Virus record (IMG/VR): IMGVR_UViG_2923350032_000001
Location: 750-64,749 of that record
DNA: 64,000 nt
Source of the DNA: a virus
Lineage: Duplodnaviria > Heunggongvirae > Uroviricota > Caudoviricetes
Strand: one strand, 5' to 3'
Shown: piece by piece, positions 9,704 through 49,871 of the stretch
Numbering within the stretch: the first letter of the stretch is position 1
Layout: each line of letters opens with the position of its first letter
Program-made: the position numbers and the translations under genes
The notes under the pieces: model-generated
The model's database searches: none
What the model was told of the DNA's origin: nothing
What the model saw: only the letters and a program-made list of their open reading frames with translations

Positions 9704-9720
9704 ATTTGCTCTAATAAATT
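9704..9720 (+). promoter_or_regulatory. C1 operator (ATTTGCTCTAATAAATT) heading the c4-icd-ant-like module
   Basis: consensus match immediately after pacB stop. Confidence 0.65.
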
Positions 9721-9789
9721 GTGTTTTTTAACTGCCGATGTTACATTGAACCTGACCTCTTGCGCCTTGAGGCATTTTCGGTTTATGCT

Positions 9790-9885
9790 TATCAGGCACC
9801 TCATTAAAACGGGTGCCGGGATTGAGACCCCGGATAATGCAAAAGGCGACACAGACGCCAAAAGCGTCTTTTTTTTGTGTCATGC
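9790..9885 (+). ncRNA. candidate c4-like antisense immunity RNA ending at hairpin GACGCcaaaaGCGTC + T-run
   Basis: structured untranslated leader between operator and icd-like ORF; terminator-like hairpin at 9862-9885; segments complementary to sequence near the icd RBS. Confidence 0.3.
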
Positions 9886-10061
9886 CATCGCACAGCCATA
9901 CGTAGCGTTTAGCTCAGAGATCAATGGTAGTGCTGGCTGGGCTGCCGAAAGGCAGGCCGGTTCCCTTTTGCGCCGGTAGTCTCAACCCAGTCAGTGCTAC
10001 CGCCATTGAGATTGAGACCTCACGCGGTAGCTCCTTAAATTAGCAAAAGGAGGCTGCCATT

Positions 10062-10283
10062 GTGGCTACTATCCCTACCCCTGCTCATCCTGAATTTATC
10101 TGGCGCTTTTACTCCTGCCAAAAACGTCACTATCACTTCGTTATTGCACCGACAGAAGATGAGGCACGTTCTCAGCTTCCTGACGCCCCATGTATTTTCT
10201 CTGCCCGTTTTTCCACTGATTCACGCAATTCTCTCAGTTACTGGTGCCTCCCTGTTAACGCTTCTGCTCAGGAGGGACTATGA
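10062..10283 (+). CDS. icd: Icd-like protein (interference with cell division)
   Basis: 73-aa ORF (EFIWRFYSCQKRHYHFVIAPTEDEARSQLPD...) overlapping start of downstream ant-like gene; paralog of ORF 23512-23733. Confidence 0.7.
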   Translation: MATIPTPAHPEFIWRFYSCQKRHYHFVIAPTEDEARSQLPDAPCIFSARFSTDSRNSLSYWCLPVNASAQEGL

Positions 10284-11392
10284 GAACATCGTTAGTTACC
10301 CGTGAAGAGATGATCGAGGCAATTGAACAGCACACTGCCTGTATCAGTACCAGGGATATACCTGGCGTTATTGCCAACTACTTCATGATCACCAAACAAC
10401 TTTACCGGAGAAAGGACAAGAACGCGGTTCACCGTATCCTGCTGTCTGATATCCGCGAATACCTGCTCGAACAGGGGCATCTGAATTACGCAACCGTCGC
10501 AGCCGAAGCACGCAAGGAGGCACACAGAATGAAAGCAACTAACGTTAAATCAGAAAAAATTTATGCACCTTCAGTTCAGGAATCGGAACTGGTGGTTGTT
10601 CAGAATCAGCCGGATGAAATTCCCGTTCTGGAATGGCAGGGAGTACGTGTCGTGACAACCGAAACTCTTGCTAGAGGGTATGGGGTCGATGAAGCCAATA
10701 TTCGCAACAATTTGTCTCGCAACCTTGACCGCTTTGAAGAAGGTAAGCATTACTTTCTTCTAACAGGTTTAAAATTAAGAGAATTTAAGAACAGAGTAAC
10801 CGGAAGTTACTCTGTTGGTAAGAACGCCAGAAGCCTTACACTCTGGACAGAGCGCGGCGCTGCACGCATGTCTAAGATCGTGGACACAAATGAAGCATGG
10901 GCATTCTTTGAAAAACTGGAAGACAGCTACTTCCGACAAAAAGAACAGCAACCGATCGCAATCCCCCAGACGCTTCCTGAAGCCCTACGCCTGGCTGCCG
11001 AACTGGCTGAACAAAAGCAGCTTCTGGAACAGAAAGCCCACCAGCTAAATCAGCAGCTGGTGGCCGCCGCTCCTAAGGTCGATTTTGCCGACCGGGTATC
11101 AGTAGCTAAAGGGATCCTGATTGGGAATTTTGCAAAGGTTGTTGGACTTAAGCAAAACGCGCTGTTTGCCTGGTTACGGGAGAACGGCATTCTGATAGCG
11201 TCCGGCGGGCGTAAAAATGTGCCGTTCCAGCAGTACATAAACGCCGGATATTTCACAGTGAAAGAAGTGGTGCTGGATGATGAAGATGGCTACCAGATAC
11301 GGCTGACGCCCCAATTAACGGGGAAAGGACAACAGTGGTTGACGCGTAAACTGCTCGATGCTGGCTTGTTAAAACCGGTGGCGGCTGAATAA
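10280..11392 (+). CDS. antirepressor-like protein with Bro-N-like middle region and KilA-C/ANT-type C-terminal domain
   Basis: 370-aa ORF; C-terminal 130 aa closely parallel the C-terminus of KilA (25415-26215). Confidence 0.7.
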   Translation: MRTSLVTREEMIEAIEQHTACISTRDIPGVIANYFMITKQLYRRKDKNAVHRILLSDIREYLLEQGHLNYATVAAEARKEAHRMKATNVKSEKIYAPSVQESELVVVQNQPDEIPVLEWQGVRVVTTETLARGYGVDEANIRNNLSRNLDRFEEGKHYFLLTGLKLREFKNRVTGSYSVGKNARSLTLWTERGAARMSKIVDTNEAWAFFEKLEDSYFRQKEQQPIAIPQTLPEALRLAAELAEQKQLLEQKAHQLNQQLVAAAPKVDFADRVSVAKGILIGNFAKVVGLKQNALFAWLRENGILIASGGRKNVPFQQYINAGYFTVKEVVLDDEDGYQIRLTPQLTGKGQQWLTRKLLDAGLLKPVAAE

Positions 11393-19405: not shown

Positions 19406-19683
19406 GGCACTGTTGCAAATAGTCGGTGGTGATAAACTTATCATCCCCTTTTGCTGATGGAGCTGCACATGAACCCATTCAAAGGCCGGCATTTTCAGCG
19501 TGACATCATTCTGTGGGCCGTACGCTGGTACTGCAAATACGGCATCAGTTACCGTGAGCTGCAGGAGATGCTGGCTGAACGCGGAGTGAATGTCGATCAC
19601 TCCACGATTTACCGCTGGGTTCAGCGTTATGCGCCTGAAATGGAAAAACGGCTGCGCTGGTACTGGCGTAACCCTTCCGATCT
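19406..19683 (+). mobile_element. partial IS26 (left IR and first 70 or so codons of tnp26), abutting a complete inverted IS26
   Basis: IR GGCACTGTTGCAAA at 19406; Tnp26 N-terminus [18 protein letters not shown]...; ends at the IR of the next copy. Confidence 0.85.
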
Positions 19684-20503
19684 GGCACTGTTGCAAAGTT
19701 AGCGATGAGGCAGCCTTTTGTCTTATTCAAAGGCCTTACATTTCAAAAACTCTGCTTACCAGGCGCATTTCGCCCAGGGGATCACCATAATAAAATGCTG
19801 AGGCCTGGCCTTTGCGTAGTGCACGCATCACCTCAATACCTTTGATGGTGGCGTAAGCCGTCTTCATGGATTTAAATCCCAGCGTGGCGTTGATTATCCG
19901 TTTCAGTTTGCCATGATCGCATTCAATCACGTTGTTCCGGTACTTAATCTGTCGGTGTTCAACGTCAGACGGGCACCGGCCTTCGCGTTTGAGCAGAGCA
20001 AGCGCGCGACCATAGGCGGGCGCTTTATCCGTGTTGATGAATCGTGGGATCTGCCACTTCTTCACGTTGTTGAGGATTTTACCCAGAAACCGGTATGCAG
20101 CTTTGCTGTTACGACGGGAGGAGAGATAAAAATCGACAGTGCGGCCCCGGCTGTCGACGGCCCGGTACAGATACGCCCAGCGGCCATTGACCTTCACGTA
20201 GGTTTCATCCATGTGCCACGGGCAAAGATCGGAAGGGTTACGCCAGTACCAGCGCAGCCGTTTTTCCATTTCAGGCGCATAACGCTGAACCCAGCGGTAA
20301 ATCGTGGAGTGATCGACATTCACTCCGCGTTCAGCCAGCATCTCCTGCAGCTCACGGTAACTGATGCCGTATTTGCAGTACCAGCGTACGGCCCACAGAA
20401 TGATGTCACGCTGAAAATGCCGGCCTTTGAATGGGTTCATGTGCAGCTCCATCAGCAAAAGGGGATGATAAGTTTATCACCACCGACTATTTGCAACAGT
20501 GCC
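19684..20503 (-). mobile_element. IS26 (complete, 820 bp)
   Basis: 14-bp terminal IRs GGCACTGTTGCAAA at 19684 and its complement ending at 20503. Confidence 0.95.
19736..20440 (-). CDS. tnpA: IS26 transposase Tnp26
   Basis: 234-aa DDE transposase [54 protein letters not shown]... Confidence 0.95.
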   Translation of the reverse strand: MNPFKGRHFQRDIILWAVRWYCKYGISYRELQEMLAERGVNVDHSTIYRWVQRYAPEMEKRLRWYWRNPSDLCPWHMDETYVKVNGRWAYLYRAVDSRGRTVDFYLSSRRNSKAAYRFLGKILNNVKKWQIPRFINTDKAPAYGRALALLKREGRCPSDVEHRQIKYRNNVIECDHGKLKRIINATLGFKSMKTAYATIKGIEVMRALRKGQASAFYYGDPLGEMRLVSRVFEM

Positions 20504-20517
20504 CCATATCAGCCCCC

Positions 20518-22447: not shown

Positions 22448-22499
22448 ACCAAACTCTTTGCATCAATAAAGGGGGCTGGCTTATATAATCAAATCACAT

Positions 22500-22891
22500 G
22501 CCCGAAATAAAAGATGACCAACACCAACGGAAATAACACTCTAAAGCTCCACCGCCAGCACCACCAGCACCACCAGCACCACCAGCACCACCAGCACCAC
22601 CAGCAACTGCACCCAAGGTAGAAGTTCCTTTAATATTATATCCAGTAACACTACCAGCTACTGCACCGAGAACAGCACCGAAAGTCTGAGCTGCTTATTT
22701 ATTAGCTGTATTATCAACTTTTACTTTGGCTGGGAGAACAGAGATTATATTTACTACTCTTGTTTTGAATTAAGTTGGGCTGTGTCGTACACATCTGCCG
22801 CATATTCAGCACCATTAGACTGACACCCTGAGAGAAAAATTGCAGAAACAACCATGACGCATAAAGAAGAAATTTTAGCCATTAGAATCAT
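22500..22891 (-). pseudogene. possible disrupted glycine-zipper lipoprotein gene (lipobox signal peptide, then out-of-frame Gly/Ala-rich segment)
   Basis: MAKISSLCVMVVSAIFLSGC lipobox ORF stops at 22754; an adjacent frame encodes AAQTFGAVLGAVAGSVTGY...GAGGAGGAGG without a start codon. Confidence 0.3.
22548..22614. repeat. tandem hexanucleotide repeat (CACCAG/GCACCA), about 10 units
   Basis: ccaccagcaccaccagcacc... read in sequence; encodes a Gly-Ala run on the minus strand. Confidence 0.85.
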
Positions 22892-23182: not shown

Positions 23183-23199
23183 TTCGCTCTAATAAATTT
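23183..23199 (+). promoter_or_regulatory. C1 operator-like site heading the second c4-icd-ant module
   Basis: cTTcGCTCTAATAAATTT. Confidence 0.55.
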
Positions 23200-23259: not shown

Positions 23260-23352
23260 TTGTAGTTCCGCCGTCGTAGCAAATTCTGCGACCGGGTTTA
23301 GCAGCCTGAATACTTACGCGGACAACCGCAGATTTCCGATATTGCGGTATTT
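23260..23352 (+). ncRNA. candidate c4-like antisense RNA of the second immunity module
   Basis: untranslated region with hairpin ACCGCAGATTTCCGATATTGCGGT + T-run, arranged like 9790-9885. Confidence 0.25.
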
Positions 23353-23511
23353 TTGTGTCCGTAAACCACGTTACGCCCGAATTATGGTGGGGCGTGATGG
23401 GGAGGCTTCGGCCTGCTGGTTTCGTAAGTGCCAGTCTGCTAACCCCGTCACGTCCTGCCACCTGTTTAGCAGCGGGTCGCAGGTTGTTTATCAACTTACG
23501 AGGCCGTAACT

Positions 23512-23733
23512 ATGGTTAATGCCAATCCTTGCGCACGCCAAGAATTCATCTGGCGTTTCTATTCCTGTAAAAAACACCACTATCACTTCGTTATCGCAGC
23601 AACAGAAGACGAAGCACGCTCTCAATTGCCTGATGGCCCCTGCATTTTTACTGCCCGTTTTTCAACTAACTCGCGCAATTCACTTAGTTACTGGAGCCTC
23701 CCCTTCTCTGCCGACGTTCAGGGGGGTTTATGA
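23512..23733 (+). CDS. icd: Icd-like protein (second copy)
   Basis: 73-aa ORF MVNANPCARQEFIWRFYSCKKHHYHFVIAATEDEARSQLPDGPC... Confidence 0.75.
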   Translation: MVNANPCARQEFIWRFYSCKKHHYHFVIAATEDEARSQLPDGPCIFTARFSTNSRNSLSYWSLPFSADVQGGL

Positions 23734-24775
23734 AAACACCTCTCGTCACCCGTAATGAAATAGCCGAAGCGATCGCCTTGCATACTGCCTGTATGCCGAC
23801 ACGGGAGACCCCCGGCGCAATTGCCAACTATTTCATGATAACCAGACGTTTTTATACCCGAACAGATAAGGCTGTGATCAACAGGCTACTGATAGCCGAG
23901 ATCAGGGATTATTTGATTGAACAAGGACGTCTACGTTACGCAACAGTGGCAGCAGAAATGAGAAAGGAGGCGCGCAGAATGACCGGTAATAATTTGAATG
24001 TTGAAAAACCAGCACCTGTTGCTTCAGCTACGCCATCACCAGCTGTGAATGTTATCTCCAACACTGGAGACACAATCGACAGCCAGACACTGTTAAAGAT
24101 GGTCAATGAAGCGCGTAAGTTATGTGTGGAACCAGAGGTTCGGAACAACAAATTCATCGAAAAAATACTCGACGAATTAGAAGGTGAGGACGGTTACACA
24201 AAAAGTGCAACCGTGCCGCCAGGTGGCGGTACGCCTATGGTTGTCATAACCATGACCTACAAACAAGCCCTGCGAGTCGCGCGCGCGAGTCAAAAGCGGT
24301 CCGCCGTTCGCTGATCGACAAACTGGAAGAATTGCAGCAGGCATACTCCCCTGCCCCATCGATCCCCCAAACATTACCAGAAGCTCTACGCATGGCTGCC
24401 GAGTTGGCAGAGCAGAAAATGCAGTTGGAACAGCAGCTGGTGGCCGCAGCCCCTAAAGTCGATTTTGCCGACCGGGTATCAGTGGCCAATGGAATCCTGA
24501 TCGGGAACTTTGCAAAGGTCGTTGGACTTAAGCAAAACGCCCTTTTCTCATGGTTGCGCCAGAACGGCATTCTCATGGCTTTTGGAGCGCGCAAAAACGT
24601 ACCGCGCCAACAGTACATCAATGCGGGGTATTTCACGGTGAAAGAAGTGGTGCTGGATGATGAAAATGGCTACCAGATACGGCTGACGCCCCAATTAACG
24701 GGTAAAGGCCAGCAGTGGTTAACTCGCAAGCTACTTGATGCTGGTTTGTTAAAACCAGTGGCGTCCTTGTCTTAA
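23730..24775 (+). pseudogene. antirepressor-like gene split into two frames (194-aa N-part, 147-aa KilA-C-type C-part)
   Basis: ORF 23730-24314 ends ...SQKRSAVR*; an overlapping frame continues ...KAVRRSLIDKLEELQQAYSPAPSIPQTLPEALRMAAELAEQK, parallel to the intact paralog 10280-11392. Confidence 0.6.
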
Positions 24776-25327
24776 CGTATTCAGACCAGGATTTGCCATA
24801 AATTACAGGCATGTGTACGATATGCCCAACCCTGTTTTTCAGGGGAGGCGCAACGTTATGCGGGGGTTATGAACTCCTGGATGCGTAGCCTCCAGACAGA
24901 AAAAACCCTCGCCACAACGTTGCATGGAGGCAACCAGCGAGGGCATTCCTTATGTCTGATCAACAAGAGGATAGCCGCAAGCAGTTGCTGTTGCAAGTGT
25001 GCGGAGCTTCGTAATGACTCTTCAAAAAGCTTGCAAGTGGATTGTGACCAACATCATTGTTCCTGTCATCATCGGAGCTTCAAGTTCTGTGTTGGCATCA
25101 GTGATTGCCTCACTTCTCCACATTGCATAACAACATTGAAGGGCGTTAGTTCGCAGTGTAACAGCAGCGCGTTGCGCCCGAACAGGCCACAGGGTAAAAC
25201 CTGTGGCCTTTTTCGTTTTAGCCAGCCACAAATCCACATTGAAAAACGCCTTATACAAAAAAACCTGCCAGCAAACTGGCAGGTTTCTGAGCAGTTCGAC
25301 CAACCCGATCTGGATCGAGTCAGAAAA

Positions 25328-25344
25328 ATTTGCTCTAATAAATT
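25328..25344 (+). promoter_or_regulatory. C1 operator upstream of kilA-repL
   Basis: ATTTGCTCTAATAAATT about 70 bp upstream of the kilA ATG. Confidence 0.7.
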
Positions 25345-25414
25345 TTGTTTTCTGAGTGCAAAGAATCACCATTTCGAGCTGGTGATTGAAGGTTGATGCA
25401 AATTTGGAGAAAAA

Positions 25415-26215
25415 ATGCAACAAACATTCAATGCGGATATGAATATATCAAACCTTCATCAAAATGTCGATCCTTCAACCACTCTGCCTGTTATTTGTGG
25501 TGTTGAAATTACGACCGACCGCGCTGGCCGTTACAACCTTAATGCTCTACACAGAGCGAGCGGACTCGGTGCCCATAAAGCGCCAGCTCAATGGCTAAGA
25601 ACGCTGTCAGCCAAACAGCTCATCGAAGAGCTTGAAAAAGAAACTATGCAGAATTGCATAATTTCGTTCGAAGGCCGTGGCGGCGGCACTTTTGCCCATG
25701 AATTGCTCGCAGTGGAGTACGCTGGTTGGATTTCTCCCGCGTTTCGGCTGAAGGTAAACCAGACATTTATCGACTATCGAGCTGGAAGATTACAACCTGC
25801 TATTCCGAAGAGCCTCCCAGAAGCTCTCCGTTTGGCTGCCGACCTGGCAGAGCAAAAGCAACGGCTGGAGCAAAAAATGCTTATGGATGCACCTAAAGTC
25901 GAATTCGCCGAACGCGTTGCTACCGCCAGCGGGGTTCTAATCGGCAACTATGCCAAAGTGCTCGGCCTGGGCCAAAACTATCTCTTCACCTGGTTGCGTG
26001 ATAACGGAATTCTGATCGCAACCGGTGAACGCAGGAACGTCCCCAAACAAGAATACATATCCCGTGGGTATTTCACCCTTAAAGAAACCGTGATCGATAC
26101 AAGCAATGGAAGCAGGATTTCTTTCACGACTCGTATAACCGGCAAAGGTCAGCAGTGGCTGATGAAGCGATTGCTTGATGCTGGTGTGCTGGTACCTGTC
26201 GCGGCAACGCGCTAA
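25415..26215 (+). CDS. kilA: KilA (KilA-N plus KilA-C/ANT domains)
   Basis: 266-aa ORF directly upstream of repL. Confidence 0.9.
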   Translation: MQQTFNADMNISNLHQNVDPSTTLPVICGVEITTDRAGRYNLNALHRASGLGAHKAPAQWLRTLSAKQLIEELEKETMQNCIISFEGRGGGTFAHELLAVEYAGWISPAFRLKVNQTFIDYRAGRLQPAIPKSLPEALRLAADLAEQKQRLEQKMLMDAPKVEFAERVATASGVLIGNYAKVLGLGQNYLFTWLRDNGILIATGERRNVPKQEYISRGYFTLKETVIDTSNGSRISFTTRITGKGQQWLMKRLLDAGVLVPVAATR

Positions 26216-27386: not shown

Positions 27387-27568
27387 TACAATCGTTGCGG
27401 GTGCTTGAGGCTATCTGCTTCAGGCATTACCCGAAAAGCAGATAGAAGAAAGCCCCAGATAACATTACGCGTCCTGCAAGACGCTTAACATTAATCTGAG
27501 GCCATATCTATGCTTAGCATACGTAGATTAGCCTCTTACCGACCAAAAGGTCAAGGAGAAGCAGGCTA

Positions 27569-27724
27569 TGAAGCAGCAAAAAGCGATGTTAATCGCTCTG
27601 ATCGTCATCTGTTTAACCGTCATTGTGACGGCACTGGTAACGAGGAAAGACCTCTGCGAGGTACGAATCCGAACCGGCCAGACGGAGGTCACTGTCTTCA
27701 CAGCCTACGAATCTGAAAGGTAAG
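27569..27724 (+). CDS. hok: Hok/Gef-family type I toxin (51 aa)
   Basis: MKQQKAMLIALIVICLTVIVTALVTRKDLCEVRIRTGQTEVTVFTAYESER fits the Hok/Gef pattern; overlapping mok-like frame 27510-27716. Confidence 0.8.
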
Positions 27725-48091: not shown

Positions 48092-48935
48092 GAAGTGGGA
48101 AGCCTCGCCCGACAGGGCGGGGAGCAGTCACAAACTGACCATTAAAGTAAATGCAAACGATGATCTGATGATGGTTGCGGCCTAAGAAGCCTGACACCAC
48201 GGGGTTGTCCCCGTCTGTGTATTAGGGAACGAGGAGGCATAACAGGCAGGGGCGCTGGTTTGATTAACCAGATGAACGAGAAGGGGCCATCTTCTGGTCA
48301 GCGTCCTTACCTGTTACGTCCTTTTTCATTCAGCGTAACAGCCGGTTCTTAACAGCCTTTGGGTAGAGTTCCTCGTATTTACGGGTATATTCCGTCATGC
48401 TGAAGGCGCTAATCACGCTGGAAGCTAGGGGGGATCCCCTGTTACCGAATTGCAGCCAGGGCGCGGGTGTAGTGGTTTATTGATTGTTACGGCGCATTCT
48501 GGGCTGTACTAAATTTCTGCGCCTAATACTACTACACTTGCCGTTTACTGATGTGTGGTATGTTGCATATGGGCAACACACTCAAGCCTGATGCAGCACG
48601 GTCAGGTAGGGGACGCCGACCTAATGTCTCGCCCTGCAAGGGCGGACGAAAGTAGATCACTATTCCGCGCAGCTATTTAGAAAGAACAGGTATTGAATTA
48701 CCTGGAGAACAACTTACTTACGTTTCCGCCACACCTTCGCTAGTTACTTTATGATGAATGATGGTAATATTCTGGTATTGTAACGAGTGCTCAGATATAC
48801 TTACATCTAAATAACAATGATATATGTTCAATTTAACCTTGAATATTTTGTAATGTTACACGACTTTAAAATTTAGAAGAAGAGGATTCGGTTGAATCCG
48901 ATATTAAATCTGAGACAGGAATATAAGGTTACACG

Positions 48936-49871
48936 ATGAAGCTTAAAAAACTACAATCTCTTGATTTTGTGAATGATTTTATGAGTCACCTAGAAACTGA
49001 TTTTGAAAAAGAATTATTCACAGCTTGTTTGCGAAATTATGCATCACATGGCAACCCATTACGTTTTCATAACTTTGCATTTTCAATTCGCGAGCTAATA
49101 AAGCATATTATCGAGAAAAAATCTCCGAATGATAAATTATTACAAGCATCGTGGTATAAGAGAGAACATGAACATTACGAAATATCTAGAAGACAGCGTT
49201 TAAAATACTGTTCTCAAGCTAAAATTTCAGATGCGTACTTGGGGGAAGAGTTCCTGGAGGAGTCGAATGAAAGAATAGATGAGATGCTTAAGCTTTATTT
49301 CTTCTTAAATAAATATACGCATATAACAGAGAAATATATGCATCCATCACCTCAAGAGTTCTTCCTGAAGGCCAAACAAATACTGCAGATCGCTACAGAA
49401 ATACTAAATGGTATACATATTTGTAGAGATGAATTAATTCGTACTCTCGAAGATAAAATTAGAAATGCAGTTATTGACACGGCGGTAAGCTCTATGCCTG
49501 AAAACCTAGTGACTATCGCGAATCATGCGTATGTAGATTACACTGAAGTCGAAGAATTTGGAATCACGTCGATTGATGATGAGTACATCAATATATATGC
49601 TTCCGGTACTGTCTATGTTACTCAAGAATATGGTTCTAGGAATGATGGGGTTAGCCTAGAAGAAAGTTATCCGTTCACGTTGCACATGGCTTCTCACTTA
49701 GACTCTCCTGAAACATTTGAAGTCATATCTGAAGCTTTAGAGGTAGACACTTCATCGTGGTACGATGATGGGGAGCAGGAGGATCAAATGATGGATATGG
49801 AAAGAAATGAAATTCATCGAATATCTGTTGCACCCCCAGACTTTGAGATGGATGACAATGTACCATTCTAA
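48936..49871 (+). CDS. hypothetical protein, AT-rich orphan gene with acidic C-terminus
   Basis: 311-aa ORF with strong codon periodicity in a low-GC island; no recognised motif. Confidence 0.55.
   Translation: MKLKKLQSLDFVNDFMSHLETDFEKELFTACLRNYASHGNPLRFHNFAFSIRELIKHIIEKKSPNDKLLQASWYKREHEHYEISRRQRLKYCSQAKISDAYLGEEFLEESNERIDEMLKLYFFLNKYTHITEKYMHPSPQEFFLKAKQILQIATEILNGIHICRDELIRTLEDKIRNAVIDTAVSSMPENLVTIANHAYVDYTEVEEFGITSIDDEYINIYASGTVYVTQEYGSRNDGVSLEESYPFTLHMASHLDSPETFEVISEALEVDTSSWYDDGEQEDQMMDMERNEIHRISVAPPDFEMDDNVPF

Follow-up and report, generated by a model that had tools for sequence, protein, structure and literature searches.

The antirepressor gene at the immI position of the phage element studied here is divided between two reading frames, and the question is whether this division is a genuine inactivation, an indel error or a programmed shift. 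The original prediction, which reported the split, offered all three as causes. The sequence analysed, called the window below, is a 64,000-nt stretch of DNA that is a P1-like phage-plasmid of the Punavirus type. Its region 23400-24900 matches P1, P7, SJ46, RCS47 and 20 other phage records, and the stretch with c4, icd and ant1/ant2 has 93.5% DNA identity to the P1 ant1 region. In P1, Ant1 and a shorter in-frame product, Ant2, form a complex that binds and inactivates C1, and synthesis of the complex is coupled to the translation of icd. It is as this complex that Ant1 and Ant2 antagonise C1, and C4 RNA prevents the complex from being made (PMC8546580; P1 record annotation).

The features of the locus are listed in Table 1. 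In the P1 reference the order is Oc4, promoters, a1/b1, c4, a2/b2, icd, ant1 (with ant2 in frame inside it), kilA and repL, and the window has the same order across immI, which confirms the canonical immI position. The identity to P1, this position and a match to Pfam ANT all bear out the prediction that the gene is the immI antirepressor with a KilAC domain at its C-terminus. As in P1, where ant1/ant2 occupies 48688-49731 of NC_005856, the icd stop overlaps the ant1 start as ATGA, and the Ant2 start and the KilAC C-terminus have their counterparts. Pairing with the anti-Shine-Dalgarno sequence is strong at both starts, at -10.9 kcal/mol for ant1 and -11.6 kcal/mol for ant2. Thus the locus has the position after c4 and icd, the full-length homology to Ant1 and the internal Ant2 start with a ribosome-binding site that a P1-type ant has; what it does not have is a single frame joining the N-terminal and central part to KilAC. 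The truncated ant1 ORF begins with ATG and ends with a TGA at 24312-24314, and Ant2, starting from the ATG at 23979, is shortened to 111 aa by that frameshift as well. The -1 frame stays open between 24188 and 24775, where the second ORF ends, and its translation from 24281 yields the full Pfam ANT/KilAC domain at residues 50-152 (E 2.4e-31). The ORF list and Pfam therefore agree with the original description, in which the N-terminal ORF ends at 24314 and KilAC continues in another frame. The locus is accordingly classed with the P1 ant1/ant2 family as a pseudogene, not as a functional member.

Table 1. Features of the immI locus and of the second immI-like module in the window
Feature	Position	Strand	Basis or remark
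Second immI-like module, intact, between pacB and c1	9920-11392	+	Rfam, ORFs, Pfam
C4-like RNA with its own loop sequences	9920-10007	+	RF01695, 75 bits
icd-like gene, GTG start	10062-10283	+	ORF list
ant paralogue, 370 aa, ORF6N and ANT (KilAC) domains	10280-11392	+	ORF list, Pfam
C1 operator (Oc4/Op51 equivalent) ahead of the immI operon	23183-23199	+	Aligns with P1 operator 48140-48156
C4 targets a1 (23298-23304) and b1 (23312-23319)	23260-23319	+	Rfam c4-a1b1 RF03163, 51.4 bits, 23260-23312
C4 antisense RNA (mature RNA about 23386-23462)	23380-23465	+	Rfam RF01695, 70.8 bits, E 8.7e-12
C4 targets a2 (23466-23472) and b2 (23494-23501), overlapping the icd ribosome-binding region	23466-23501	+	
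icd, intact, 73 aa	23512-23733	+	ORF list; Icd-like protein WP_000245712.1 in plasmids identical here
ant1/ant2 antirepressor, probable pseudogene, whole extent	23730-24775	+	1046 nt, against 1047 nt for intact alleles of the same type
Truncated Ant1 frame	23730-24314	+	194 aa: 184 native and 10 out-of-frame residues, then TGA
Ant2 internal in-frame start with strong SD AAGGAGG	23979-23981	+	Corresponds to P1 ant2 start 48937
1-nt deletion site, C of codon 184 (GCC in all intact alleles compared)	24279-24281	+	
Stranded C-terminal part, -1 frame, KilAC (ANT) at about 24428-24736	24281-24775	+	Pfam PF03374, E 2.4e-31
A_AAG tetramer in the truncated frame, between deletion and stop	24293-24296	+	
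kilA (KilA-N and KilAC), intact, downstream neighbour as in P1	25415-26215	+	

The regulatory part of the operon is complete. The core GCTCTAATAAATTT is conserved in the operator at 23183-23199, and the positions of a1 and b1 were taken from the alignment to the P1 annotation. The C4 of the window itself is a perfect complement of target a1 and also of a2 and b2, and for these last two the C4 of P1 is not. Specifically, a1 and a2 both read TTAGCAG, opposite CTGCTAA in C4, and b2 reads ACTTACGA, opposite TCGTAAGT. Compared with P1, both C4 recognition loops and all four targets (23298-23501) have changed in a compensatory way, and no cross-match was found either between the window's targets and P1 C4 or between the P1 targets and the window's C4. 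This pattern implies an immI immunity specificity that is probably distinct from that of P1.

To locate the break we aligned the gene with seven intact homologues: P1, MH422554, Ro157c2YLVW, E. albertii p06-3542, pRHB25-C13_2, pTB502 and pSvP1_F. All seven are single ORFs, and the sole gap that separates the window from them is one nucleotide within a conserved stretch, at which the homologues read GTCGCCGCGCGCGAG and the window reads GTCGCGCGCGCGAG. The seven intact alleles have GTCGCCGCG here (GTTGCTGCT in pTB502), while the window and two further records (L009 and L010) have GTCG-CGCG; with more of the flanking sequence, the intact alleles read ...GAGTCGCCGCGCGCGAGTC... or synonymous variants of it, and the window reads ...GAGTCG-CGCGCGCGAGTC.... 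Because the alignment with P1 ant1 is unbroken except for this 1-nt gap, chance is not in question. The comparison with homologues that the original prediction proposed for finding the indel thus leads to a single missing C in codon 184, at 24279-24281, close to the point (about 24290) from which the second frame had been said to continue. With this C missing, the upstream frame stops at 24314. If the C is re-inserted, the result is a 348-aa protein collinear with all seven aligned homologues.

The window therefore differs from P1 in lacking one C of codon 184, with both Ant products truncated. The break interrupts a conserved helix (YKQALRVAARESKAVRRSLIDKLEEL) and does not coincide with a linker, and the truncated Ant1 and Ant2 are left without the last helix of the central domain and without the whole KilAC domain. 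The full length of the repaired protein is covered by a match to PHROG 63 ('anti-repressor Ant'; E 3.8e-104). For its central domain, a Pfam search of the repaired protein returned ANT alone; PHROG 1726 and PHROG 12199 cover the central part, and neither adds a specific function. A further difference from P1 lies at the end of the gene, where the last four ant codons and about 478 nt after them diverge (VASLS in the window, VAIG in P1).

Apart from the deletion, the window allele carries eight private substitutions relative to the seven intact alleles, four of them non-synonymous and four synonymous, and the three located in 24330-24440 are absent from all the others among 330 E. coli records. 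Counts of four against four do not show clear neutral drift, a point that counts against a loss of function. We also considered relaxed selection as a means of dating the mutation and discarded it, as the probability of four or fewer non-synonymous changes among eight is about 0.11 (binomial, with approximately 75% non-synonymous sites), which is uninformative either way.

The 90%-identity cluster that contains the 194-aa truncated Ant also includes many 469-aa proteins annotated as 'phage antirepressor KilAC domain-containing'. There is thus a longer Ant variant that shares its N-terminal part with the window's truncated Ant.

An independent check on the deletion is its presence in other sequences. 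A segment of 1501 nt that includes the deletion is 100% identical in two complete plasmids, pEC85-4-128k (NZ_CP158185.1, from human urine, China) and pL9-1 (NZ_CP142045.1, from chicken, Henan), in both of which PGAP labels the gene 'phage antirepressor KilAC domain-containing protein, frameshifted' (ABRY29_RS25440; VPJ62_RS23525). The window and these two plasmids are mutually distinct, being separated by IS and Tn insertions and large rearrangements; the differences involve insertions of IS91 (one of them upstream of immI), IS26 and TnAs3, and the window is without the tail-gene region. In a large protein collection, the exact 194-aa product was called on seven public contigs. Its carriers include LVLU01000038.1, JBAOQF010000016.1 and a Logan contig of SRR32878100, with DNA 99.98-100% identical around the gene. 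At least five public sequences besides the window thus reproduce the deletion, and they differ in isolate, host and project.

The allele is also uncommon. The window's 81-nt stretch across the site was matched exactly by 2 of 458 E. coli records and by 1 of 461 PLSDB plasmids; of the 458 E. coli records containing the segment, at least 456 thus have a different allele. The next-best E. coli records listed (n = 13) all have the extra base and span 82 nt. A search for the exact deletion pattern gave no matches in viral contigs, species-representative genomes or metagenome contigs, while the exact intact pattern gave 19 in viral contigs. The ant deletion allele is a distinct, inherited and rare one.

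These results weigh on each of the explanations that could be given for the split. If it were a sequencing or assembly error, the true sequence would have the extra C and one continuous ant1 ORF. The sequence around the deletion is indeed rich in G+C and includes a CC doublet (GTCGCCGCGCGCG), and such a context can give rise to indel errors; pEC85-4-128k also has other genes labelled 'frameshifted'; moreover, the backing for the window's base call consists of its identity with other assemblies, and a context-specific systematic error is conceivable. A random indel error is nevertheless rejected because the allele recurs across independent records, at least five in number as described above, and a systematic one is made unlikely by the extra base in every listed E. 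coli record that shares the local sequence. The eight private point substitutions also indicate a distinct allele, not a miscalled copy of the common one. A corrected sequence with one continuous ORF, the outcome that would have spoken for an error, has effectively not been obtained: independent assemblies repeat the deletion. Of the causes originally offered, an indel error is therefore extremely unlikely. A second way to keep a full-length Ant would be a programmed or 'savior' -1 frameshift at the A_AAG tetramer. The shift needed is indeed -1, A_AAG stands in the right frame, and a slip there would give a 348-aa product differing from native Ant in four residues (VARASQK/AVRR in place of VAARESK/AVRR). 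In E. coli, A_AA.G is the most efficient tetramer, with up to 5.6% frameshifting, only when combined with a strong pseudoknot (PMC4066793). Of the elements that can stimulate such a shift (an SD-like sequence upstream, or a hairpin or pseudoknot 5-9 nt downstream), only a modest hairpin is predicted directly 3' of A_AAG, at 24297-24317; this hairpin is weak and has zero spacer. Within 24188-24314, where both frames are open, the tetramers are A_AAA (24200) and A_AAG (24293), with no others, and there is no X_XXY_YYZ heptamer. Intact alleles read the A_AAG bases in a different frame, so that the motif is there by coincidence, and the two-frame split is absent from the listed homologues and unconserved, given that only 2 of the 458 E. 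coli records and 1 of the 461 PLSDB records match the split allele. Because the split is unconserved and the heptamer is lacking, a programmed shift is rejected as a cause, and rescue at A_AAG is highly improbable; slippage there is possible as a trace-level leak, not as a mechanism.

The two halves might also have become separate polypeptides, with KilAC made from the TTG at 24332 or the ATG at 24392 and antirepressor function kept. The change of CTG to ATG at 24392 (L222M) is lineage-specific, being absent from the seven intact alleles and from 330 E. coli records, and gene callers predict a 127-aa ANT-domain ORF from this ATG. In addition, the TGA at 24312 is just 17 nt upstream of the TTG, which makes reinitiation conceivable. 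However, L222M is one of the eight private substitutions and may be a hitch-hiker, and the downstream KilAC frame is without a usable ribosome-binding site: neither restart codon has a Shine-Dalgarno sequence, with pairing energies of -3.3 kcal/mol at TTG 24332 and -0.2 kcal/mol at ATG 24392. The exact 147-aa product initiated at the TTG was not found in the protein collection. Since the restarts lack Shine-Dalgarno pairing and the break cuts through the conserved helix instead of a linker, gene fission is unlikely, and we give it almost no credence. A milder version of these last two ideas is that the deletion is an attenuated allele, through low-level slippage at A_AAG or a separate KilAC product from ATG 24392, for which we see a slight chance. 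In that case the immI antirepressor would be turned down and not off, and the second, orthogonally C4-controlled module would take over induction.

By far the most probable explanation is a genuine loss of function, in which one C was deleted in codon 184 of ant1/ant2 and the change was inherited in one plasmid lineage. Among the causes named in the original prediction, genuine inactivation is the one that the recurrence and rarity of the allele support. The promoter, the operator, C4, the four target sites, icd and both ant starts are intact, and the operon is presumably still transcribed and regulated. Both Ant products would end at 24314 without KilAC, and the antirepressor activity of immI has most likely been lost; the loss of the domain suggests that the truncated proteins are inactive. 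The intact regulatory part and icd fit a mutation that arose recently in an operon still functional in other respects. The element retains Icd, KilA and the second antirepressor module, with its independent C4 control.

Such a loss may be tolerated since ant is dispensable in P1 or is backed by the paralogue. In the work of Heinrich, Velleman and Schuster on the tripartite immunity of P1, ant is reportedly not essential for lytic growth or for lysogeny. Natural plasmids offer a parallel. In the P7-like plasmid pMCR_SCKP-LL83 and its relatives, ant1 is disrupted by ISApl1-mcr-1 (PMC5786510); the same gene has been lost in a circulating P1/P7-like phage-plasmid, by insertion of a resistance module and not by a point deletion. 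Because ant1 is inactivated in naturally circulating plasmids of this type, loss of ant is tolerated. In the E. coli plasmid NZ_CP044439.1, too, an ISApl1 lies under the match.

The paralogue belongs to the second immI-like module in Table 1. As originally described, it occupies one uninterrupted frame, of 370 aa. Its product shares 56% identity with the repaired immI protein and departs from it in the central domain, which is ORF6N here, so that it is a diverged paralogue, not a duplicate. A C1 operator-like sequence, TTGCTCTAATAAATT, occurs at 9705-9720 in this module, and an isrK-like RNA at 9796-9874 (RF01394, 59 bits). The arrangement of an IsrK-like and a C4-like RNA upstream of an antirepressor (9705-11392) recalls the Gifsy-1 isrK/anrP locus. 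The segment with the second module is identical in pEC85-4-128k, where it is annotated. RCS47, pTZ20_1P and similar plasmids are described as having an additional ant module between pacB and c1 (PMC6906374), the place that the module occupies in the window, where the copy is intact and has the ORF6N central domain. The second module may make the ant gene of immI redundant.

The ant frameshift is already known, in that RefSeq labels the identical sequence as a frameshifted pseudogene, and the finding is correct but ordinary. The correct annotation of the locus is one frameshifted ant1/ant2 pseudogene, not two genes. The deletion provides a single-base marker for one P1-like phage-plasmid lineage in human and poultry E. 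coli, and it joins the published cases showing that natural P1-like plasmids can do without the immI antirepressor. Should this loss prove to stabilise the plasmid state, it would be of modest interest for the drift of phage-plasmids toward plain plasmids.

We also compared the overall structure of the window with its relatives. In pEC85-4-128k and pL9-1 the two ends of the window (1 and 64000) lie 750 nt apart in the same orientation, and about 64 kb of pEC85-4-128k, including sit, tail tube, tail fibre and lysis genes among others, is missing from the window. The junction of the missing segment adjoins TnAs3 and IS26 near 20501 (region 19683-20507). The source is probably a circular deletion derivative of about 64.75 kb, i.e. 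a defective phage-plasmid. Because full-size relatives share the ant frameshift, it is older than the deletion of about 64 kb. Among the phage genes toward hsdR there is a 1.7-kb IS91-family element (57250-58938); pL9-1 has no insertion at this site and carries copies of the same element elsewhere, one of them upstream of immI.

Relative to P1, the window has an insert of about 478 nt at about 24760-25240, which separates the last four ant codons from the PkilA/Op53 region; its first 340 nt or so are common to E. albertii plasmids. The insert contains a 43-aa hydrophobic ORF at 24999-25130 (38 aa if counted from MTLQK), followed by a strong terminator-like hairpin at 25184-25209, a combination that is reminiscent of a small membrane toxin. 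The small ORFs of the insert have no Pfam or NCBIfam matches; the PGAP annotation at this place is a 132-aa hypothetical protein on the minus strand (25022-25423).

Upstream of the operon, at 22494-22650, lies a trinucleotide tandem repeat, (GGA)n on one strand, which reads as GAG or His-Gln runs depending on the frame. Its copy number differs among the window, pEC85-4-128k and pL9-1 (variable near 22578), and PGAP annotates the region as a frameshifted, incomplete hypothetical pseudogene. Finally, a hok/sok type I toxin-antitoxin locus is present at 27399-27573 (sok RF01794, 114.9 bits). It sits between repL, on its upstream side, and IS421; the identical plasmids have hokD annotated here, and P1 has the rlf genes in its place.
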